Of a stretch of DNA of 64,000 bases, positions 3,904 to 32,772 are shown piece after piece (the stretch's first letter is position 1; each line of letters starts with the position of its first letter). A program made the translations under genes and the position numbers. The notes under the pieces are model-generated. The model worked only from the letters and a program-made list of their open reading frames with translations, ran no database searches and had not been told where the DNA came from. The stretch comes from a virus (Duplodnaviria > Caudoviricetes): the IMG/VR virus record IMGVR_UViG_3300032030_000015, positions 81,002 to 145,001 of that record; one strand, 5' to 3'.

Positions 3904-6900
3904 TGCTCACCTCCTTCCTCCGGATCTTTCTCCGGTGCTGCCTGCACATACCCCTCCTCATACTCCTTGCCGGCGGTATAGGGCTTGGTGGGCACGCCGC
4001 CGGGACGGTTGCGGTAGAAGTAATGCACGAAGGTGTGCTGGGCAGAGAGTTCGCGGGGCACGCGCTCGCCGGTCGATACCTCGTGGCGGTACTTGTTCTT
4101 CTCCATGCGCTCCACGGGCTTGCCCTGCTGGTCGAGCACGGTGAGCCAGGCACGGGTCTGGCGCCCGCCGCGACGACGGTACGACGCCGTGTTCAGCACC
4201 ACGTCGGGATCCATCACGATGCCCATGCGGTTCAGGCAGGGTTTGAGATACTTCGCTATGCGCTTCTTCGCCTTCTCGATGGTGTCCCAGGTGACGCCCT
4301 CGCCCTCTGCGTCCAATAATGATATCGCCATCTCCTGCGGCGGTATCGGCTGTCCGATGTGAGGGTTGTCGGGCGTGTCCTCGAAGTACTGCACCAGCCA
4401 GTCGGTCAGCCCCGAGTCCTTAGTCATGGCGTAGAGTTCGCGGCGCAGGCTACGGCTCTCCGTCGGCGGCAGGATAGTCTCGTTGGGGTGCTGCAGGTAG
4501 AACTGCGCCATCGCCAGCAGCATGTTCTGCAGCTCGTTCAGCAGGTGTGCCGGCAGGTTACGCGCCACCTCTGCCACGCCGTACTTCTCCAGGAAGTCGT
4601 CCTTCGGGGCATGGTCGAGCCATCGCCCGTCGTCGGTGGCGGCGTGGTAGTAGTCCGAGGTGAAGCAGGGATAGATGCGCCCCTTGGTGGAGCCTGCCGA
4701 GCGGTCGAAGGGCTTGTTCGAGGTGATGAACACCTTGGGCACCTCGTCGCCGGTCAGCGTGACGGGCTGGTGATACAGCGTCTTGCACACCAGTTTCGTG
4801 CCGATGTTGTACAGGTCCTCGACGTTGAAGTTGTCGGGCATCTCGTCCATGCAGACCAGCGTGTGCAGGTGGGCTATGACGTAGCCGAACAGCACCTCCA
4901 TCGAGATGTTCTTCATCGACTTGCCCGCGATGTTGGCCGACGAGGGCCTGACGGTGGCCATCATGTCGATGTGTATGCTTTTTCCGTTGCGTCCGCTGGC
5001 CTTCTGCTCGTCGGTCACGCTGTAGTCGGTCATGTGGACGGTCAGCTGCCGTGCCAGGCTGCGGTGCCGGGTGATGCTGTAGCCGATGGCGTGGCAGTGG
5101 TTGATGAAGTGCATGTCCTGCATCTGCCGCTCGATGGCCGTCAGCTTCTCGCCGAACGACTCCTTCTCCCAGAAGATGCGGCACGTGTTGTACTCGAACT
5201 GGAAGTGCATCGGCATCTCCTCCAGGGGCTTGTCCATGACGAGCCGGAACTTCCACAGTTCCTCCCACTGCTTCCACCGCAGGTTCTCGGCGGCACGCAT
5301 GGCGGGCGTGGTGCATTGCTTCGATATCTCCTCGTGGCGCTTCCGCTCGGTCTCGTACTTCGGGTTGACGACGATGCGCCACGGCTGCTGCTGCACATGG
5401 AACTCGCCCGGCATGATGGCTTCCTCGTTGGTCACCCACGGCAGCCGGTCGTAGGGCACCTCGCGGATCTCGTCCTTCGTCACGCGGACGGCGGTGTTTT
5501 GGAAGAAGAAGTGGTCGAAGTCCTCGCCCCACGAGTGCTCGTTGATGGGTGCCGGCGGCATGGTGTTCATCGTCCGGGCATCGAGTCCCTTGCCGGTGAA
5601 GATGGTGTTCACCAAATTGGCCTTGAACTGCGACGGGTCGTCCCTGCGCTCGTCCTGGTCGGCATACTCTGCATCGTTGCCGAAGTGGGCGTCTATCCAG
5701 TCGAGCATCGACGTGCGGCAGACCGACTCCAGCTGGTTGCCCGTGCGGCTCGTGTCGAGATAGCGATAGGTATTATTGTGCGAGAGCTGATAGAACGCCC
5801 GCTGGCCGCGCTCGTCCTGATGGCAGCGGATGCCCTTCGCGTCGAGGAACTGCAGCAGGTTCGCCACGCTCAGCACGTAGCGCACGTTGTGCTCCTTCTC
5901 GTCCTTGTCGTTCTTCTTCGACGTGTGTTTGTCAATCCAGAACTGCATCGTCAGCGCGTTCTTCAGCATCCGCATCAGTGCCTCCGAGGGGTTCGCCTTC
6001 CGCAAGTCCGGCGCAAACAGTTTCTGTATCTGCGAGAAGTGCGTCACGAAGTCCGTCACGTCCTTGTAGGGCTTCGCCTTGGTTTCCACCTCCCCCATCT
6101 CCTTCGGCAACCGTACCCAATGCACCCTGGCATTCTCCAGAGCGATGCTGGCACTGCAGGCCTGACCCGTTGCGTCGATGTCGTAGCATACATATATATC
6201 TACCGCCACCTGAGCCATCCGCATCAGCAGCACACGCAGCCATTCCTCGACCACGCCGTCCTTGATGCCCGCCAACTCATTGTGCAGCCACAGCACATGA
6301 GCGTCCGTCGCCGCCCACATCTGCATCGCATCGCGAGGCCCTGAGCACAGCACCAGCCGCTTCATCTTCGCCTTCACGGGGTTCTTGTCGCTGTCGCGCT
6401 CTGTCACCACGAGCGGGTGCCGCCTGTCCTTCAGCGCGTCGGCAAACCACGGAGCGGCTGCCGCTTCTCCGGCTGCGGTCCTGTGCTCGGCGGTTCTGCC
6501 GCCGATGGCTTCCATCGCCGCCATCGCCACATGGTCGCCGTACAGCCGTGTGGCCACGTCGCCCTTCTTATACCACGCCCATTTCGTCGTCTTGCTTCTC
6601 GGCTCGTATTTCTTCGTGCCCCATTCATACGGCATCGCGAATATCGGGTACGTCAGCCTGTCGTGAATCTCCAGCGAGCACTTGCCGCCCTGCTTGGCTT
6701 TTACAGGCGAGGTGATGAACACATCGACTGGGTACGTCTGGAACTCCCGCTCGATCGTCTCGCCCCACTCCTGGGCAGTCTTGGCCTCTCCCCTGCCCCG
6801 CCAGAACTCGCGGTCGATTGAGCAGCGGTACAGCGGCACCGGCTTCCCGTCGCCCTCACTGTGCTCGGCGGTTTTGCCGCCGAGGTCGGGCTCTTTATAC

Positions 6901-24802: not shown

Positions 24803-25477
24803 ATGATATACCCAGGGACAGACATAAAATGGATGGTGACAGTCGAGATGGACGGCTTCTCGATAGACGAGGACGACATGGAACTGGTCATCAAGAACAG
24901 ATACGGGCAGGTGAAGTATTCGTACAAGGCCGAAGATTTCTACACCAACGGCAATGGTATGTGGTTCTTCAACATGCCCAACGCTCGCAGAGGCTCATAC
25001 TTTGCCTTACTGACGTGCTGGCGCGGTGACGAAGACTTCCACGACGGCTATCAGAAGGTGACAGACATCCAGCACTTCGTCGACGTCGGCGTCTGCGGCT
25101 GCGCCAATCACACCTGTCACTGCTGTCAGACCGACGGCATGAAGGTGACGTACACGCGAGTATGGACGGTAAACTTCCAGGACGGCATCTACTTGGCCGA
25201 CAAGGACGGAAATCCGATACGTGATTGCAACGGCGAGCTGATACGCTTTAGCGACCGTGTGCCGGAGCGTAAGGACGTACGCATCGACATGACGGCTGAG
25301 GAGTTCAAGCACTGGATGGACGACCGCGACAAGAACGGTATCATCGACACGCGGAAGGAACTGGAGGACGTTCTCGGCGGTGTTGACGACGACACCGAAT
25401 TGGGGCTGATGACACCGGACGACACCAGAGACATGATGAGCCGAATACTGAACAACAACGAAAATACAGGAGGATAA
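24803..25477 (+). CDS. Fibre base/baseplate adaptor (Ig-like N-terminus, Cys cluster, C-terminal dock motif)
   Basis: MIYPGTDIK.. beta-sandwich; CGCANHTCHCC; IDTRKEL; ends LMTPDDTRDMMSRIL. Confidence 0.55.
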   Translation: MIYPGTDIKWMVTVEMDGFSIDEDDMELVIKNRYGQVKYSYKAEDFYTNGNGMWFFNMPNARRGSYFALLTCWRGDEDFHDGYQKVTDIQHFVDVGVCGCANHTCHCCQTDGMKVTYTRVWTVNFQDGIYLADKDGNPIRDCNGELIRFSDRVPERKDVRIDMTAEEFKHWMDDRDKNGIIDTRKELEDVLGGVDDDTELGLMTPDDTRDMMSRILNNNENTGG

Positions 25478-25481
25478 AGCT

Positions 25482-25805
25482 ATGCCAAGACCAAGAGAAG
25501 ACAAGTCGGTGCGCCTGTCGATGTCGGGCGAGGAGTTCAAGACGCTCATTGAGCGTTTTACGGACAACGGGCGGATAGACACCGTTCCAGAGCTGATGGA
25601 GACCGCTGCGGATATGCCGTCGATTATTAACGAGAAGGTGCAAGACGCTATGGACAATATCAGCACGGCAACGGACGAGGATATTACCGACCTTTTCGGT
25701 GGCGAGCAGGATGAGCAGCAGCCCATCGTCAGCGACGGCGACGGTGACGGAATCGACGATTCGCTGATAGCCGACGATGAAGACATCGAAAGCCTTTACA
25801 GATGA
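25482..25805 (+). CDS. Fibre adaptor with two C-terminal dock motifs
   Basis: N-terminus paralogous to the end of the 24803 gene (VRLSMSGEEFK..NGRIDT vs VRIDMTAEEFK..NGIIDT); ATDEDITDLF and ADDEDIESLY. Confidence 0.6.
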   Translation: MPRPREDKSVRLSMSGEEFKTLIERFTDNGRIDTVPELMETAADMPSIINEKVQDAMDNISTATDEDITDLFGGEQDEQQPIVSDGDGDGIDDSLIADDEDIESLYR

Positions 25806-25874
25806 TGAAGAGGACGTTAGTCCGAATCAATATAGTTCACTTTATTCATTAACAACACAAACACAAAAGCTATT

Positions 25875-26756
25875 ATGGCACTATCAGACGCTCAGAAAGC
25901 AAAACTTATCAAGTTAGGGCAGTTGGCGAAGTTCAAGGAGCTTGCCGATGCCAAGTATCAGGCCGCTATCAGCGACCTCTCAACCATCCGTAGCGGTGCT
26001 GCCGCAGGTGCAACAGCCTATCAGAAGCCTCAGACAGGTATTCCGTCTACCGACCTTGCACAGGCCGTACAAGACGCTATCACCGCCGCAGGCTCGGCTC
26101 TCCAGCCATCGGACATCGCGGAACTGACCAGTAAGGTGTCCGCTCTCGAAGGACTCATCACTGCCGATGACCCCCGTGGTGCCATTGACAAGTTCAACGA
26201 GATTGTCGCCTTCCTTGACGGCATTGATGCTACCACCCTCGATGGCATCCTCACAACCATCAACAGCAATATCGCTGCTAAGTACACGAAGCCTGACACA
26301 GGTATTCCCGCAACAGACCTCGCCGACAGCGTACAGGCTTCGCTGGCACTCGCCGACACAGCCATTCAGCAGGCAGATATTGACGGCTTCGCCACGAAGG
26401 TTGACGGTGCTACGGCAGGAAACTTCGCCGGGCTTGACTCTAACGGCAACCTTGTAGACAGCGGTGCAAAGGCTTCGGACTTCCAGCCCGCAGGAAACTA
26501 CAAGACCACGCAGAGCGCCGTCGCTGACCCCACTGCCAACGGGACAGCCGTAGCCTTCATCGACTCTATCTCTCAGAATACCAACGGAGAGGTTAGCGTC
26601 ACGAAGAAGACTGTTGTCGGTGCCGTGGCATCATCGGCAGGTGTAGGCGGCAATGCTGGCCTTCTGTCTGCTACCGATAAGGAGAAGATTGACGCTATCG
26701 ACTACGCCACCGACGCTGAGGTAGCTGCACTCTTTGCCGAGGAGGAAGGCGAGTAA
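25875..26756 (+). CDS. Fibre segment protein
   Basis: Repeated YxKPxTGIPxTDL, IDKFNEIVAFL and GNLVDSG fibre motifs. Confidence 0.75.
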   Translation: MALSDAQKAKLIKLGQLAKFKELADAKYQAAISDLSTIRSGAAAGATAYQKPQTGIPSTDLAQAVQDAITAAGSALQPSDIAELTSKVSALEGLITADDPRGAIDKFNEIVAFLDGIDATTLDGILTTINSNIAAKYTKPDTGIPATDLADSVQASLALADTAIQQADIDGFATKVDGATAGNFAGLDSNGNLVDSGAKASDFQPAGNYKTTQSAVADPTANGTAVAFIDSISQNTNGEVSVTKKTVVGAVASSAGVGGNAGLLSATDKEKIDAIDYATDAEVAALFAEEEGE

Positions 26757-26811
26757 ACACGTTCACACGGGAGGGGGAGCAACGTCCCTCTCCCCTTAAA
26801 AGGAAACGGTC

Positions 26812-26955
26812 ATGGACAATTTCAATAATAAGACAGTCACTCTCGGCAACCTTGCCACCTACGACGGCCTTATCCGTCAGTGGGTAGACGGCAGAGTGAT
26901 GACTTCCGAGGACACAGACTCCATGATGCAACGTGTACTCGGAGCGAACGATTAG
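26812..26955 (+). CDS. 47-aa fibre adaptor (not in the ORF track)
   Basis: MDNFNNKTVTLGNLATYDGLIRQWVDGRVMTSEDTDSMMQRVLGAND*, consisting of an N-dock and a C-dock only. Confidence 0.7.
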   Translation: MDNFNNKTVTLGNLATYDGLIRQWVDGRVMTSEDTDSMMQRVLGAND

Positions 26956-26989
26956 TAAACAATTTTTTAACGTTAAGAAATTACGCATT

Positions 26990-27451
26990 ATGGCAAACAC
27001 ACTGAAAGACTTGGCTTCTACAGCCAAACTGGTTTCGCAGACCGCGCTTGAGCAGGCTCTGACCGACCTCAAGAATTACATCGACACGCAGGATGCCGCA
27101 GGCGGCTCGTCGGCACAGCAGGCCATCCAGCAGCTGCAGTCACAGCTCGACACGCTCATCGGTGCGCAGGGCGGTGATGTAGACAAGATTATCAACACCT
27201 TCAACGAGATTAAGGCGTTCCTTGCCGACTACGACGAGGACGACACGCTGAAATCAATTATTGACGCTGCCGAGGCTGCTGCTGCCGCTGCTGCCGCAAC
27301 CGCCGAGCAGAACGCCAAGACGTATGCCGACGGTCTGAACACGACAATGTCCGCTCGCGTGAAGACGCTTGAGGACATCAACGTCATGACGGCACAGGAG
27401 GCACACACCATCTACGAAGGAGTGTTCAACTCTGCAGCGGCAGGAGACTAA
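26990..27451 (+). CDS. Fibre segment protein (start MANTLK at 26990)
   Basis: INTFNEIKAFL motif, AEQNAKTYAD coiled coil, terminal dock motifs. Confidence 0.75.
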   Translation: MANTLKDLASTAKLVSQTALEQALTDLKNYIDTQDAAGGSSAQQAIQQLQSQLDTLIGAQGGDVDKIINTFNEIKAFLADYDEDDTLKSIIDAAEAAAAAAAATAEQNAKTYADGLNTTMSARVKTLEDINVMTAQEAHTIYEGVFNSAAAGD

Positions 27452-27463
27452 AGGAGGGAGACG

Positions 27464-27631
27464 ATGGGACAGTATGACAATCATCTTGTTAACGGTGAAG
27501 CACTGACGCAGGTGTTGGTGGACATTCACACCGACCAGCAGCGACAGGACGCGGCCACGAAGACCGTAGCTGACGCACTGCCGACGGCACTTGATGTCGT
27601 CGAAATCTCCAAGTTATGGAACAGAACTTAA
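27464..27631 (+). CDS. 55-aa fibre adaptor (not in the ORF track)
   Basis: MGQYDNHLVNGEALTQVLVDIHTDQQRQDAATKTVADALPTALDVVEISKLWNRT*. Confidence 0.7.
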   Translation: MGQYDNHLVNGEALTQVLVDIHTDQQRQDAATKTVADALPTALDVVEISKLWNRT

Positions 27632-27660
27632 TAACAACAATTAAAAAAAACATTACGATT

Positions 27661-28866
27661 ATGGGAAAATTTCTTGACCAGTCAGGTGTGGCTCACCTGA
27701 TTTCACTCATCAAGGCTGCCTTCGTGGCCAAAGAGAATGGCAAAGGTCTGTCTACAAACGACTATGATGCCGTCGCGAAGGGTAAGGTTGATGCCATCCC
27801 GGCAAACCCCAAGTACACGGACACTACCTACACGTCAAAGTCTGCCGCCGACGGTGGCACCGAGGTGTCGCTCGTCACCACGGGCGAGAAGTACTCATGG
27901 AACAACAAGGGCTCGTACTCGAAGCCGTCGGGAGGCATCCCTGCCTCCGACCTCTCTGCGGCTGTACAAACTTCTCTCGGCAAAGCTGATACGGCTCTCC
28001 AGCAGCATCAGGATGTCTCCGGAAAGGCTGACAAGTCGGCCACCGTCTCGAACGTGGCATGGGATGGCACGAACAAGAAGCTGACGAAGACCATCAACGG
28101 AACTTCGTCGGATGTCGTCAGCGCCGACACCATCAAGGCTGCCCTCTCGCTCGACAAGGGCGACGTAGGTCTCGGCAGCGTCACCAACGACGCGCAGGTA
28201 AAGCGCTCGGAGATGGGTGTCGCTAACGGTGTGGCCACGCTCGACGGCGAGGGCAAGGTGCCCAGCTCACAGCTGCCGGGCTACGTCGATGACGTCGAGG
28301 AGTACGCCACGCAGAGCGCGTTCCCAGCAACGGGCGAGACGGGGAAAATCTACGTCGACAAGGCCACGAACAAGACCTACCGCTGGGGCGGAACGACCTA
28401 CGTCGAAATATCGTCGTCCGACATCACGGGCATCAAGGTGGGTTCTTCCGGAACGACCATCACCCCGTCTGGCGGCGTCATCACCATCCCTGCATACGAG
28501 ACAGGCGCACAGGTGAACACCGTCATCAGCGTCGCAGGAAAGACGGGGGCCGTCACTCTCGACAAGTCTGACGTAGGTCTCGGCAACGTAGGCAACTTCA
28601 AGGCCGTCTCTACCGCCGCCTCGCAGGGACTGACTGCCACAGAGAAGAGCAACGCCCGAACGAACATCGGCGCAGGGACGTCGTCGTTCAGCGGGTCGTA
28701 CAACGATCTGTCGAACAAACCGACCATCCCCACGAAGGTCAGCGACCTGACCAACGACTCGGGATTCACCGCCGTCACCAAGGCTACTGTCACTGGATGG
28801 GGCTTCGTCGAGGCTACGGCACTGACAGACGCGGAAATCGACGAGCTGTGGAATGCCGTCGCATAG
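27661..28866 (+). CDS. Fibre segment protein (start MGKFLD at 27661)
   Basis: GKGLSTNDY, KxDVGLGxV, GVATLDGEGKVPSSQLPGYVDDV, SVAGKTGAV and SGSYNDLSNKPTIPTKVSDLTNDSGF are classic gut-phage fibre repeats. Confidence 0.85.
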   Translation: MGKFLDQSGVAHLISLIKAAFVAKENGKGLSTNDYDAVAKGKVDAIPANPKYTDTTYTSKSAADGGTEVSLVTTGEKYSWNNKGSYSKPSGGIPASDLSAAVQTSLGKADTALQQHQDVSGKADKSATVSNVAWDGTNKKLTKTINGTSSDVVSADTIKAALSLDKGDVGLGSVTNDAQVKRSEMGVANGVATLDGEGKVPSSQLPGYVDDVEEYATQSAFPATGETGKIYVDKATNKTYRWGGTTYVEISSSDITGIKVGSSGTTITPSGGVITIPAYETGAQVNTVISVAGKTGAVTLDKSDVGLGNVGNFKAVSTAASQGLTATEKSNARTNIGAGTSSFSGSYNDLSNKPTIPTKVSDLTNDSGFTAVTKATVTGWGFVEATALTDAEIDELWNAVA

Positions 28867-28943
28867 CGAACAGAAGTCTCCGGCGGATGTCACCGCAGCC
28901 ATCCGCCGGAGTTTACTGAAACCTTTAACGAATAACATCAGAC

Positions 28944-29327
28944 ATGGAGAAATTCTTAGACTCCGCTGGCCTGAGCCAGCTCATAGCAAACATAAAGCGC
29001 GGAACGCCCGTGGCCGTCGTCAGCGGCACCACACCCACGCAGCAGCTCGCACCGAACATGCACTACTCCTTCGGCGAGGTCACAGCACTCACCGTGACAC
29101 TCGGAAGCCCAGTGACGGCAACGCAGGACAACGTCACGAAGTACTACCCCTCGGAGTACACCTTCGAGTTTGACAGCGGCTCTACGGCAACAACGCTCTC
29201 GCTGCCTGCATCCATAGTGTGGCAGGACGGCACGGAACCCGTGATTGCCGCAGGTAAGCACTACGAGATAAGCATCAAGTACGATGCTGCCAACCAGACC
29301 TACTACGGACTGTGGGCGGAATGGTAA
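28944..29327 (+). CDS. Distal fibre cap/adaptor for the receptor-binding protein
   Basis: N-dock KFLDSAGL followed by a beta domain (EYTFEFDSGSTATTLSLP..W..YEISI); no C-dock. Confidence 0.65.
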   Translation: MEKFLDSAGLSQLIANIKRGTPVAVVSGTTPTQQLAPNMHYSFGEVTALTVTLGSPVTATQDNVTKYYPSEYTFEFDSGSTATTLSLPASIVWQDGTEPVIAAGKHYEISIKYDAANQTYYGLWAEW

Positions 29328-29346: not shown

Positions 29347-30525
29347 ATGAAAGAGAGAAGAAGAGTCATGATGGGCATTGGCGTGAAAGAGCCATACACA
29401 AGGCTGTTGTTCCTTGAGACGACGGGAACGCAGTATATAGACACTGGTTACAGGCCCAACAACAAGACCCGTATATATGCGAGGATGCAGACCACCGAGA
29501 GCACTCCCTACGGAAGGCTCTTCGGCTGTGTAAGCGGAAGCAACTACAACAGTTCTCCTGCCGTCGTACTGGACTGGGAAAACAATTACAACGGCACGCT
29601 CCATGTCATGTGGGGCAATGTGAGCGGATGGACGAACCTTCAGAGCATCACTGGAGACTACGGCATCCATACCTACGAAATCAACAGGGGTGTAGTGTCT
29701 TATGACGGCACGCAGGTGCATGACTTCGAGGACAGCGACACTTGGCAGACCACCGTGAACATGGCCATATTCGACTACTTCAAATCGACGGGTATCAGCG
29801 GTGGCGACGAGCGCATGATAGGCCGCGTATATGAGTTCAAGATATGGGAGGACGATGTGCCAGTGAGGGATTTCGTTCCCGTGCTGGTTGACGGCGTGGC
29901 ATATCTGTACGACAAGGTGACGAAGCAGCTCTACGGCAATGCTGGCACTGGTGTGTTCCGCTACGCAATCAGCGAAAGTAATCTCATCAGGACAGAATAT
30001 ATTGAGACCGACGGCGCGCAGGCGATAAACACCAGCATCGTTCCCAAGGACAACGGGGAGTACTCTATAGACTGTTTGTTAACCACCGTAGAAAACGACA
30101 CTCCCGAAGCTATGGTGACAACGTATAGCTATACCTATTATGTTAGGTTGCGATTCGAGTTTAGTTACAGGTGGAGCTGGGTTAGAGCAGGTTTCCTTGA
30201 CCAAGGCTCAGGTGAAGTTAGTATCAATACAAGAACAAGGCATCTGTATACCATTGACAAAAAAGGCTTATACATTGACGGAAACCAGTCGAAAGGGTGG
30301 TCTTCGTCACGTTCCTTCGAGACTGGCTACAACGAGAAAATCTCCATCATAAAAAACACTTTCATCGGACGGATATACGGAGCGCAGATAAAGGAAGGCG
30401 GTGTACTCGTCCTTGACCTCATCCCTGGCCGCATCGGTACTGTGGGCTGTATGTACGACCGTGTCAGCGGACGTGTCTACCCTAACGACGGCACGGGCGA
30501 CTTCAGGGTAGGGCCAGACGTATAA
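29347..30525 (+). CDS. Receptor-binding protein with two tandem lectin/LamG-like domains
   Basis: N-terminal RRRVMM; duplicated (F/Y)(L/I)ETxGxQxI(D/N)T ... D(F/L)(V/I)P ... YDxV(T/S) ... NxGTG module. Confidence 0.65.
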   Translation: MKERRRVMMGIGVKEPYTRLLFLETTGTQYIDTGYRPNNKTRIYARMQTTESTPYGRLFGCVSGSNYNSSPAVVLDWENNYNGTLHVMWGNVSGWTNLQSITGDYGIHTYEINRGVVSYDGTQVHDFEDSDTWQTTVNMAIFDYFKSTGISGGDERMIGRVYEFKIWEDDVPVRDFVPVLVDGVAYLYDKVTKQLYGNAGTGVFRYAISESNLIRTEYIETDGAQAINTSIVPKDNGEYSIDCLLTTVENDTPEAMVTTYSYTYYVRLRFEFSYRWSWVRAGFLDQGSGEVSINTRTRHLYTIDKKGLYIDGNQSKGWSSSRSFETGYNEKISIIKNTFIGRIYGAQIKEGGVLVLDLIPGRIGTVGCMYDRVSGRVYPNDGTGDFRVGPDV

Positions 30526-30555: not shown

Positions 30556-31077
30556 ATGACAAAGAAACAATGGATTGACGGCGACGGGAACTTGTGGAAC
30601 GGCAGTTCGGTCGTCATAGGAGAGACAAGAGTGATTAACCCCACGGACGAGCAGATGCTTGAGGCAGGCTACACGGAGTACACAGCACCAGAGCCGACAG
30701 ACGCTCAGCGGCTCGGACAGGCACGGCAGAAGAAACTCGCGGAACTGTCGGCCTACGACCAGAGCGACGCAGTGGACGGCTTCTCCATCGGCGGCGTGAC
30801 CATGTGGCTCACCGTCAGTGAACGGCAGCAGATAGCCACTCAGATAGCTGCCAGCGAGGCTGTAGGCCGCACAGAGATGACCCGCTGGTTTGGTGGTCAT
30901 GCCTTCACCTTCCCCCTCGCCACATGGCAGCAGATGCTCGTGGCACTCGAAGTCTATGCTGGCGACGCACTGAACGTCACCGAACAGCATCGGGCAGCCA
31001 TCAGCGCACTCGGCACGGCAGCAGAGGTCGAAGGCTACGACTTCACCATAGGCTATCCCGATAAGCTCGCCTTCTGA
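30556..31077 (+). CDS. Tail fibre assembly-like protein (DUF4376-like)
   Basis: KLAELSAYDQSDAVDGF..MWL..LEVYA..YDFTIGYPDKL. Confidence 0.65.
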   Translation: MTKKQWIDGDGNLWNGSSVVIGETRVINPTDEQMLEAGYTEYTAPEPTDAQRLGQARQKKLAELSAYDQSDAVDGFSIGGVTMWLTVSERQQIATQIAASEAVGRTEMTRWFGGHAFTFPLATWQQMLVALEVYAGDALNVTEQHRAAISALGTAAEVEGYDFTIGYPDKLAF

Positions 31078-32150: not shown

Positions 32151-32220
32151 CCCGTGGATTTCAGCAGTGATTTCCACATAGTTCACTTTATTTATTCACC
32201 AACACAAAAACCAAAACATT

Positions 32221-32772
32221 ATGGCACTCGAAATGAATGACCTGATGGCCCTGAAATCAATGGGCAACGGGGGTGGCATGACTCCCTACGAGCAGTACAT
32301 GGTTGGCTACAAGCAGTCGAAGCGCCCCAGCGGCGTGGCGATTGCAGGACTGACCGTCGGTTCAGTAGCTGCTGCAGCAGCTGTAACAGCATGGATCTTC
32401 GGCGGCACCTACGCCAACGCGAAGTCGAAGGAGGCCAAGGAGGCCGCACATTCAGCAAAGGAGGTGGCTATGGCCTACTATGCTGGAGTTGACAAGCGAC
32501 TCGACAACATCGGTGCGCTGCTGGAGAGCGAGGTGAACCGTCGCATCCAGGGTGACATCAACATCACCCAGTCGGTCAGCGACACCATCAGCGGACAGCA
32601 GAGCACGTCACAGTCCACCAGCGTCGAGAACTCGGCAATGGCTACGGCCTACAACCAGATCATCTCCGACCGTCTGACTGGCCGCTCCAGCCTCGATGCT
32701 CAGCCCGTCTGCATCTACTCGGCTCCCAAGCCCTGTGGCTGTCCAGGCTGCGGTTGTGGCTGCCAAGGCTAA
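32221..32772 (+). CDS. Cys-tailed protein with a hydrophobic helix and coiled coil
   Basis: GVAIAGLTVGSVAAAAAVTAWIFGG; ends PCGCPGCGCGCQG. Confidence 0.8.
   Translation: MALEMNDLMALKSMGNGGGMTPYEQYMVGYKQSKRPSGVAIAGLTVGSVAAAAAVTAWIFGGTYANAKSKEAKEAAHSAKEVAMAYYAGVDKRLDNIGALLESEVNRRIQGDINITQSVSDTISGQQSTSQSTSVENSAMATAYNQIISDRLTGRSSLDAQPVCIYSAPKPCGCPGCGCGCQG

Follow-up and report, generated by a model that had tools for sequence, protein, structure and literature searches.

Class-coded terminal motifs point to a probable fibre joined end to end in a gut-type phage

Introduction

The range of bacteria that a phage can infect is set by its fibres. How they are built in the abundant uncultured phages of the gut is essentially unknown. 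In the long tail fibre of T4, gp34, gp35, gp36 and gp37 are encoded side by side and arranged end to end, with the small gp35 and gp36 at the joint (PMC5537660). A different solution is found in the anchor/branching-domain systems of receptor-binding proteins (RBPs), such as those of the Klebsiella phages KP32, K11 and KP34 and of CBA120- and G7C-type coliphages, where a conserved N-terminal peptide docks onto another RBP in a plug-and-play manner (PMC6872550, PMC13352976). The N-terminus of crAss001 gp22 anchors in a hub, and the structure of this phage left the joints between its fibre proteins unresolved (PMC10172136). Helical joints are also documented. In Pa193, three C-terminal helices of the tape measure protein pack with three N-terminal helices of the tail tip (PMC11456595), and a six-helix bundle forms the fibre root of phiKZ (PMC13250141). 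Finally, podophages A1002, GP4 and VP1 carry a chain-like fibre of many small subunits in a row (PMC13730344). In this study, we analysed eight consecutive genes (g1 to g8) with related terminal motifs, located in a 64,000-nucleotide (nt) stretch (the window) that spans positions 81,002 to 145,001 of the virus record IMGVR_UViG_3300032030_000015.

The likeness of this locus to the T4 long tail fibre is that adjacent gene products would be joined end to end, as judged here from adjacency statistics and one structural model. It is very probable that distinct polypeptides are linked head to tail, the C-terminal motif of each engaging the N-terminal motif of its successor. That g1 to g8 together make up one virion fibre, assembled non-covalently, probably trimeric, and joined end to end in gene order, is in our judgement a likely reading. 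All the support for this assembly is computational.

Results

The open reading frames (ORFs) of g1 to g8 and their end motifs are exactly those quoted in a preliminary description of this DNA, which had proposed a fibre built from separate polypeptides with an orthogonal docking code. We refer to the C-terminal motifs as C-docks and to the N-terminal ones as N-docks. The translated ORFs also bear out that g2 carries two C-docks and g8 none. C-docks of all classes are N-capped amphipathic helices with a common pattern (hydrophobic, S/T/D, x, x, acidic, hydrophobic, x, x, hydrophobic, aromatic). N-docks of all classes consist of a short strand, a turn and a helix, and occupy about 11 to 17 amino acids (aa) among the 26 N-terminal residues in g2 to g8. 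A loose C-dock pattern, placed at most 15 aa from the C-terminus, occurs in 8 of the 1185 six-frame ORFs of the whole genome, six of them in the cluster, and the class-specific dock patterns are, genome-wide, almost confined to g1 to g8. As a background, we used 80 unrelated fibre loci from IMG/VR, which match g7 only by a common mid-fibre repeat and lack docks; here, the loose pattern was found in 14 of 4735 ORFs. Given these whole-genome and background counts, the clustering of the motifs is real and chance is excluded.

Three docking classes (A, B and C) had been proposed. They are recognisable and class-specific in gene order, although they are better seen as flavours of one grammar with finer subtypes. 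Class A splits into A1, present on bases and adaptors, and A2, present on g5 only; likewise, N2 comprises N2a, on g5, and N2b, on g6 and tips, and both divisions are confounded with membership of the g5 family. The classes themselves were defined after inspection of the data.

The order of the docks was followed in approximately 80 related loci, which are not phylogenetically independent. Among 627 non-redundant same-strand neighbour pairs, a C-dock in one gene is associated with an N-dock in the next (two-by-two counts 15/24/10/578; odds ratio 36, p = 1e-13), and most discordant pairs were found on inspection to be pattern or start-codon misses. According to the preliminary description, B is always followed by N1, C always by N3, and A by N2 except after g1. 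Class C does precede N3 in 9 of 9 cases, and class A precedes N2 (14) or the g2-type N-dock (6) and no other. The step from the class A dock of g1 to g2 is thus regular rather than exceptional, since a g2-type N-terminus after an A dock was seen in 6 of 6 non-redundant junctions. Class B is mixed, being followed by N1 in 19 cases, by N3 in two and by nothing recognised in 20; these last are chiefly misses, with a dock-less gene intervening in some phages. At the level of subtypes, the junctions were A1 to N2a (nine), A2 to N2b (eight), A1 to g2-type (five) and A2 to g2-type (one), with no crosses between A1/N2a and A2/N2b.

The chains also have a polarity. They start with proteins that bear only a C-dock, such as g1, a 1119-aa protein in locus L092 and a 226-aa protein in L085, and end with proteins that bear only an N-dock and varied tips (Peptidase_S74, Lcl_C, a PF26209-like domain and others). 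The same layout is found in L085 despite a different head module (P22-type portal and SU10-type capsid), and is therefore no peculiarity of one lineage. In this podovirus-like relative, the major capsid gene is closely followed by one (5259-5471) for a 70-aa protein that has a B-type C-dock at its end, and the same connector may be used on head fibres too.

We modelled one of the junctions as a complex of three copies of g5 (42-row alignment) and three of g6 (7 rows), in three runs and with three controls. The interaction prediction score from aligned errors (ipSAE) was 0.77 in 3 of 3 runs and 0.00 in the best of the 3 controls. This mark is reached by 58 of 80 solved complexes and by 2 of 110 mismatched pairs, counts that hold only roughly for this type of job. 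The predicted local distance difference test (pLDDT) score of the partner was 81, and contacts were at least 91% consistent between runs. The confident interface pairs g5 residues 130-143, 145-146 and 149 with g6 residues 4, 6-22 and 24-25, that is, the class A C-dock with the N2 dock, and the non-cognate ends lie outside it. Hence, in the multimer check that had been suggested for this locus, the junction that was run docks exactly at the predicted motifs. According to the contact list, every dock helix of g5 (133-146) meets two copies of g6 in a parallel register, which suggests a 3+3 helix bundle for the modelled joint. Searches of all PDB chains with profiles and single sequences returned no solved homologue by sequence for g5, g6, g7 or the g3 family; with none for g5 or g6, recall of a known complex is unlikely.

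These data bear on the possibility that the N-docks plug independent fibres in parallel into sockets of the tail or baseplate, in the manner of the crAss001 gp22 N-terminus, while the C-docks serve elsewhere, for instance on a chaperone or the capsid. N-terminal anchoring peptides are indeed the usual means of fibre attachment (PMC10172136; PMC6872550), and several N-dock proteins of one class are present per genome. However, parallel anchoring explains neither why the N-dock class tracks the class of the upstream C-dock nor why g4 and g6 comprise only an N-dock and a C-dock, and it leaves the polarity of the first and last genes unaccounted for. As the g5-g6 model moreover puts an N-dock on a C-dock, we consider this explanation unlikely.

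The docks stand out by their conservation, being the most conserved parts in the g5, g1, g4 and g6 families. The g3 family has 292 metagenomic homologues, and in 33 diverse members no residue is invariant other than L17 and F20, in the N-dock, and F287, in the C-dock. The AlphaFold2 (AF2) model of g3 shows a strand at 11 and a helix at 14-40, and then a bridge at 277 and a helix at 280-288. In the g5 family (80 homologues), it is both termini that are conserved best, with M133 and F146 as invariant dock residues. The eight g1 orthologues of alignment A5 share invariant M203, T204, M211, M212, R214 and L216 inside the dock, which is covered by helix 205-219 of the AF2 model, and both B docks of g2 are conserved in L083, L155, L156 and L157. 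The 47-aa g4 and the 55-aa g6, which the preliminary description had noted as unannotated, behave as real genes. Both are conserved in relatives, with ratios of nonsynonymous to synonymous substitution rates (dN/dS) of 0.10-0.21 for g4 and 0.08-0.22 for g6 and with saturated dS, and in both the docks are conserved and the linkers variable. Some sources leave these two genes uncalled. The g4 gene is kept in L083, L155, L156 and L157. In a search of 1.8 billion representative proteins, a g6 profile retrieved six further relatives of 51-63 aa and another with 87 aa. The persistence of the motifs despite saturated dS indicates that selection acts on the protein.

Conserved ends could also be intrinsic folding elements, that is, trimerisation starters and helix caps that cluster because fibre genes cluster. 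The best point for this explanation is that the A2 helix is kept in two cis fusions devoid of an N-dock. In addition, an A-like helix is also present inside g1 and g2, and one generic capping-box pattern runs through all classes. Yet stand-alone proteins of 47-55 aa under purifying selection have nothing to cap, and neither class-specific adjacency nor a modelled heteromeric interface would be expected. For these reasons, we find a purely intrinsic role improbable.

The exchange of modules, which the preliminary description had envisaged, does occur in nature, and the dock order is coherent in each case (L156, L158, L159, L160 and L162). In L156, L159 and L162, g6 is absent and g5 is followed by tip proteins of 501, 182 and 428 aa, respectively, each headed by the N-module of g6. 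In L159, L160 and L162, g5 comes directly after an A1-bearing base, and the g2-g4 block is missing from L159 and L162. The order in L160 is base, g5, a g2-like gene, B-dock genes, and finally an adaptor of 47 aa whose docks are combined differently. L158 has a different dock pair in place of B/N1, and an adaptor of 56 aa leads back to A1 ahead of g5. A dock order that stays coherent despite such swaps is what a connector system predicts.

Several related loci show further features around the chain. An RVT_1 reverse-transcriptase gene lies within a few genes downstream of it in L087, L088, L089, L156, L159 and L162, suggesting a diversity-generating retroelement; in the genome of the window, the only RVT_1 match is far from the chain (G000:C1:52568-53218). 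Lectin-like Lcl_C or DUF8237 domains occur on nearby or chain-end proteins in L111 and L159, and in the fusions P0201 and P0202. In other lineages (P0208, P0212, L097, L100, L130 and L132), an N3-like N-terminus of the K-K-Y-L-D-x-x-G/A-L type pairs with a C-terminus of the I-T/S-x-E-E-I/V-x-x-L/I-F type, carried either by the gene before it or by the same long coiled-coil fibre protein. The connector theme is thus not limited to this phage group.

Since phages evidently exchange modules at these borders, the conserved border DNA might itself promote cassette exchange, with the peptide motifs as a by-product. This we regard as very improbable, because synonymous sites are saturated while particular residues are invariant (dN/dS 0.1-0.2), the motif variants differ in DNA, and the intergenic spacers are not conserved. 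That a single long fibre gene, broken by mutation or recoded, accounts for all these genes is scarcely credible: g5 and g6 do share a frame and lie 12 nt apart, but most neighbours are in different frames, each with its own ATG and spacer, and the split layout is conserved in at least nine distinct loci from several phage lineages. Altogether, each of the four explanations set against end-to-end docking fails on at least two of the following: class adjacency, selected mini-proteins, polarity of the ends, saturated sites, reading frames and the modelled interface.

The window belongs to a complete virus record of 145,001 bp with direct terminal repeats, which encodes a tape measure protein of 2712 aa, a head maturation protease and RtcB. 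Start regions are A-rich and lack Shine-Dalgarno sequences. The tape measure protein, the terminal repeats and the A-rich starts are consistent with a large, long-tailed phage of gut type, probably infecting Bacteroidota. The cluster is embedded in a co-oriented run that begins with g0 (1608 aa), continues with g1 to g8, all on the plus strand with spacers of 4-77 nt (Table 1), and ends with g9 and g10 directly 3' of the tip gene. On the same strand, g9 (29347-30525; 392 aa) contains two internal repeats of one domain that lacks a family match, and bears no docks; g10 (30556-31077) matches DUF4376 with 26.8 bits against a cut-off of 25. The g7 frame is open upstream (27616-27660) as far as an ATG at 27616 that overlaps the end of g6, and likewise in L083. 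Judging from the orthologue starts in L155, L157 and L158 and from the position of the dock, g7 probably starts at 27661 rather than at this upstream ATG.

Table 1. Genes of the cluster and their terminal motifs, with positions in the window and proposed roles
Feature	Residues (aa)	Position (nt)	Strand	Description
g1		24803..25477	+	224 aa; putative chain base; immunoglobulin (Ig)-like beta-sandwich at aa 1-132; no N-dock
g1 helical module	159-174	25277-25324	+	Paralogous to g2 N-terminus
g1 C-dock	202-216	25406-25450	+	Class A1
g2		25482..25805	+	107 aa; putative adaptor A to B
g2 N-dock	10-26	25509-25559	+	g2-type
g2 C-dock, first	63-72	25668-25697	+	Class B
g2 C-dock, second	97-106	25770-25799	+	Class B
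g3		25875..26756	+	293 aa; putative shaft segment
g3 N-dock	10-20	25902-25934	+	N1
g3 C-dock	278-287	26706-26735	+	Class B
g4		26812..26955	+	47 aa; putative adaptor B to A; variable linker between docks
g4 N-dock		26830-26862	+	N1
g4 C-dock		26896-26940	+	Class A1
g5		26990..27451	+	153 aa; putative coiled-coil shaft segment
g5 N-dock		27026-27061	+	N2a
g5 C-dock	132-146	27383-27427	+	Class A2
g6		27464..27631	+	55 aa; putative adaptor A to C
g6 N-dock	7-18	27482-27517	+	N2b
g6 C-dock		27587-27622	+	Class C
g7		27661..28866	+	401 aa; putative shaft segment with tail-fibre repeats
g7 N-dock		27667-27714	+	N3
g7 C-dock		28819-28854	+	Class C
g8		28944..29327	+	127 aa; putative chain end; small beta tip domain; no C-dock
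g8 N-dock		28950-28997	+	N3

Some non-coding features of the operon may bear on its expression. An exact 15-nt repeat, set in a similar stretch of about 50 nt and present in only two copies in the window, lies directly upstream of the g3 start (25832-25846, plus strand) and of an ORF at 32221 (32178-32192, plus strand). It may represent a shared promoter or leader, giving g3 and the following genes their own transcription start. GC-rich stable hairpins that lack a U-tract follow the shaft genes on the plus strand, in the g3-g4 spacer (26769-26794) and in the g7-g8 spacer (28871-28918; z = -4.7), and L083 retains a g3-g4 hairpin of different sequence. These may be attenuators or stability elements that set the ratios of shafts to adaptors. 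A consensus scan of the operon for sigma-70 promoters and terminators was uninformative.

Discussion

Combining what was observed (the conserved motifs, the rule of adjacency and the swapped modules) with the one modelled junction, we propose that the C-dock helix of each protein would meet the strand-turn-helix N-dock of the next. Three C-dock helices would wrap the N-terminal coiled coil of the following trimer in parallel orientation, giving a 3+3 helix bundle. The chain would run from the Ig-like base g1 (A1) through g2, which would adapt it to B, to the shaft g3, and then through g4, back to A1. Next, the coiled-coil shaft g5 (A2) would be followed by g6, an adaptor to C, the shaft g7 and the receptor-binding tip g8. 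Shafts would thus have the same broad class in and out, adaptors of 47-107 aa would switch it, and tips would bear an N-dock only, a design that would allow segments to be inserted, lost or swapped with no redesign of the rest. The trimeric stoichiometry, the geometry of the bundle, the order at the other six junctions and the place of the fibre on the virion are what we infer from these data.

This arrangement departs from the preliminary description in some respects. Only the 47- and 55-aa proteins had been taken as adaptors; we count three, as g2 also adapts A to B. It had also been suggested that each long segment could self-polymerise. This does not follow, since A1/N2a and A2/N2b never cross; the supposed match between the ends of g5 is consequently no argument for it, and an ordered chain is at least as likely as self-polymerisation. 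Branching at the two B docks of g2 and a variable fibre length are speculation.

Several observations weigh against an end-to-end fibre ordered by its docks. A conserved dock-less gene of 80-118 aa sits between a B-dock gene and an N1 gene in L087 (8704-8946), L088 (8704-8946), L093 and L160 (8077-8433) and breaks strict adjacency; it could encode a chaperone or an unrecognised connector. The adjacency statistics are weakened by the relatedness of the loci and by the post hoc classes. Moreover, the broad classes are degenerate in this genome, with A1 on g1 and g4, N1 on g3 and g4, and N3 on g7 and g8, so that docks alone may fail to fix a unique order. The g5 module of P0201 and P0202 is continuous in cis with a lectin-like tip, which follows the A2 helix immediately and has no N-dock; this helix thus has a role within the chain as well. 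As for the model, it covers 1 of 7 junctions, a job of this kind (homotrimers with their own alignments) is outside the calibration of the tool, the pLDDT of g5 itself in the complex is only 61, and coiled-coil-prone chains may bundle in models.

If true, a readable docking rule would let the composition and order of a fibre be predicted from sequence, and would account for many unannotated mini-ORFs in fibre loci. It would also reveal how phages swap their tips, several of which have a reverse-transcriptase gene next to them in relatives. The docks could then serve as small, natural connectors to engineer phage host range or protein assembly. More tentatively, gut and rumen phages of several lineages might share a peptide connector grammar, in which at least seven mutually specific dock pairs of about 12 aa dictate the gene-order assembly of interchangeable shafts, tips and 47-107-aa adaptors. 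The layout itself is conserved across numerous uncultured phages. We hold the broader proposal to be possible but rather doubtful; if it is right, the architecture of a fibre could be deduced from genome sequence, and the docks could find use as orthogonal protein connectors.

Multi-protein fibres, docking peptides and six-helix joints have already been published, and it is the reiterated, class-coded pair of terminal motifs with its mini-adaptors that we did not find described in the literature. Pfam (hmmscan) gave no match for g1 to g9, and Pfam, PHROGs and PDB hold no model of these gene ends; the PHROG tail-protein matches of g7 fall in the middle of the protein. Scanning IMG/VR with g1 returned no match and with the g5 profile no relative, and no close relative was found among GenBank phages, with only repeat-level matches in Bacillus, Faecalibacterium and Curtobacterium phages. 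A Foldseek search with the g1 model returned generic Ig-like matches only. The ESM Atlas model of g8 (predicted template modelling score, pTM, 0.81) resembles clusters carrying PF26209, a phage tail fibre C-terminal domain (TM 0.64, feature score 0.95), whereas Pfam hmmscan found no match for this protein.

In comparison with the T4 long tail fibre, no homology to gp34-gp37 was detected in Pfam, PHROGs or PDB fibre chains. T4 joints are made of beta-structured ends and a monomeric knee-cap, whereas those proposed here would be made of short, reiterated helix motifs. Unlike g1 to g8, T4 has neither a family of class-switching mini-adaptors nor one dock grammar at every joint. The short conserved N-terminal docking peptides of g2 to g8 recall the anchor-branch RBP systems, by analogy and not homology. 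The socket of those systems is a folded T4gp10-like domain in RBP1, in a branched assembly of usually two proteins; here, it would be a C-terminal helix of about 10-15 residues in a serial assembly of up to eight. No T4gp10-like branching domain was found in g0 to g9 with Pfam and PHROGs.

The fibre proposed here would be multi-protein like that of crAss001, a phage of gut Bacteroidota in which gp22 acts with partners. Nevertheless, no homology to gp22 or to the THA/THB hub was found among all PDB chains, crAss001 entries included, and the 2712-aa tape measure protein indicates a long-tailed phage, not a crassvirus-like podovirus. In A1002, GP4 and VP1, a separate "rope" protein carries dimers attached through beta-sheet augmentation, whereas we propose direct end-to-end joining. 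Finally, both kinds of dock are helices in the AF2 monomers of g1 and g3, and the g5-g6 bundle, inferred from the contact list only, would be similar to the joints of Pa193 and phiKZ. Those are single joints between unrelated tail parts, whereas in g1 to g8 a class-coded connector would be reiterated along the fibre.

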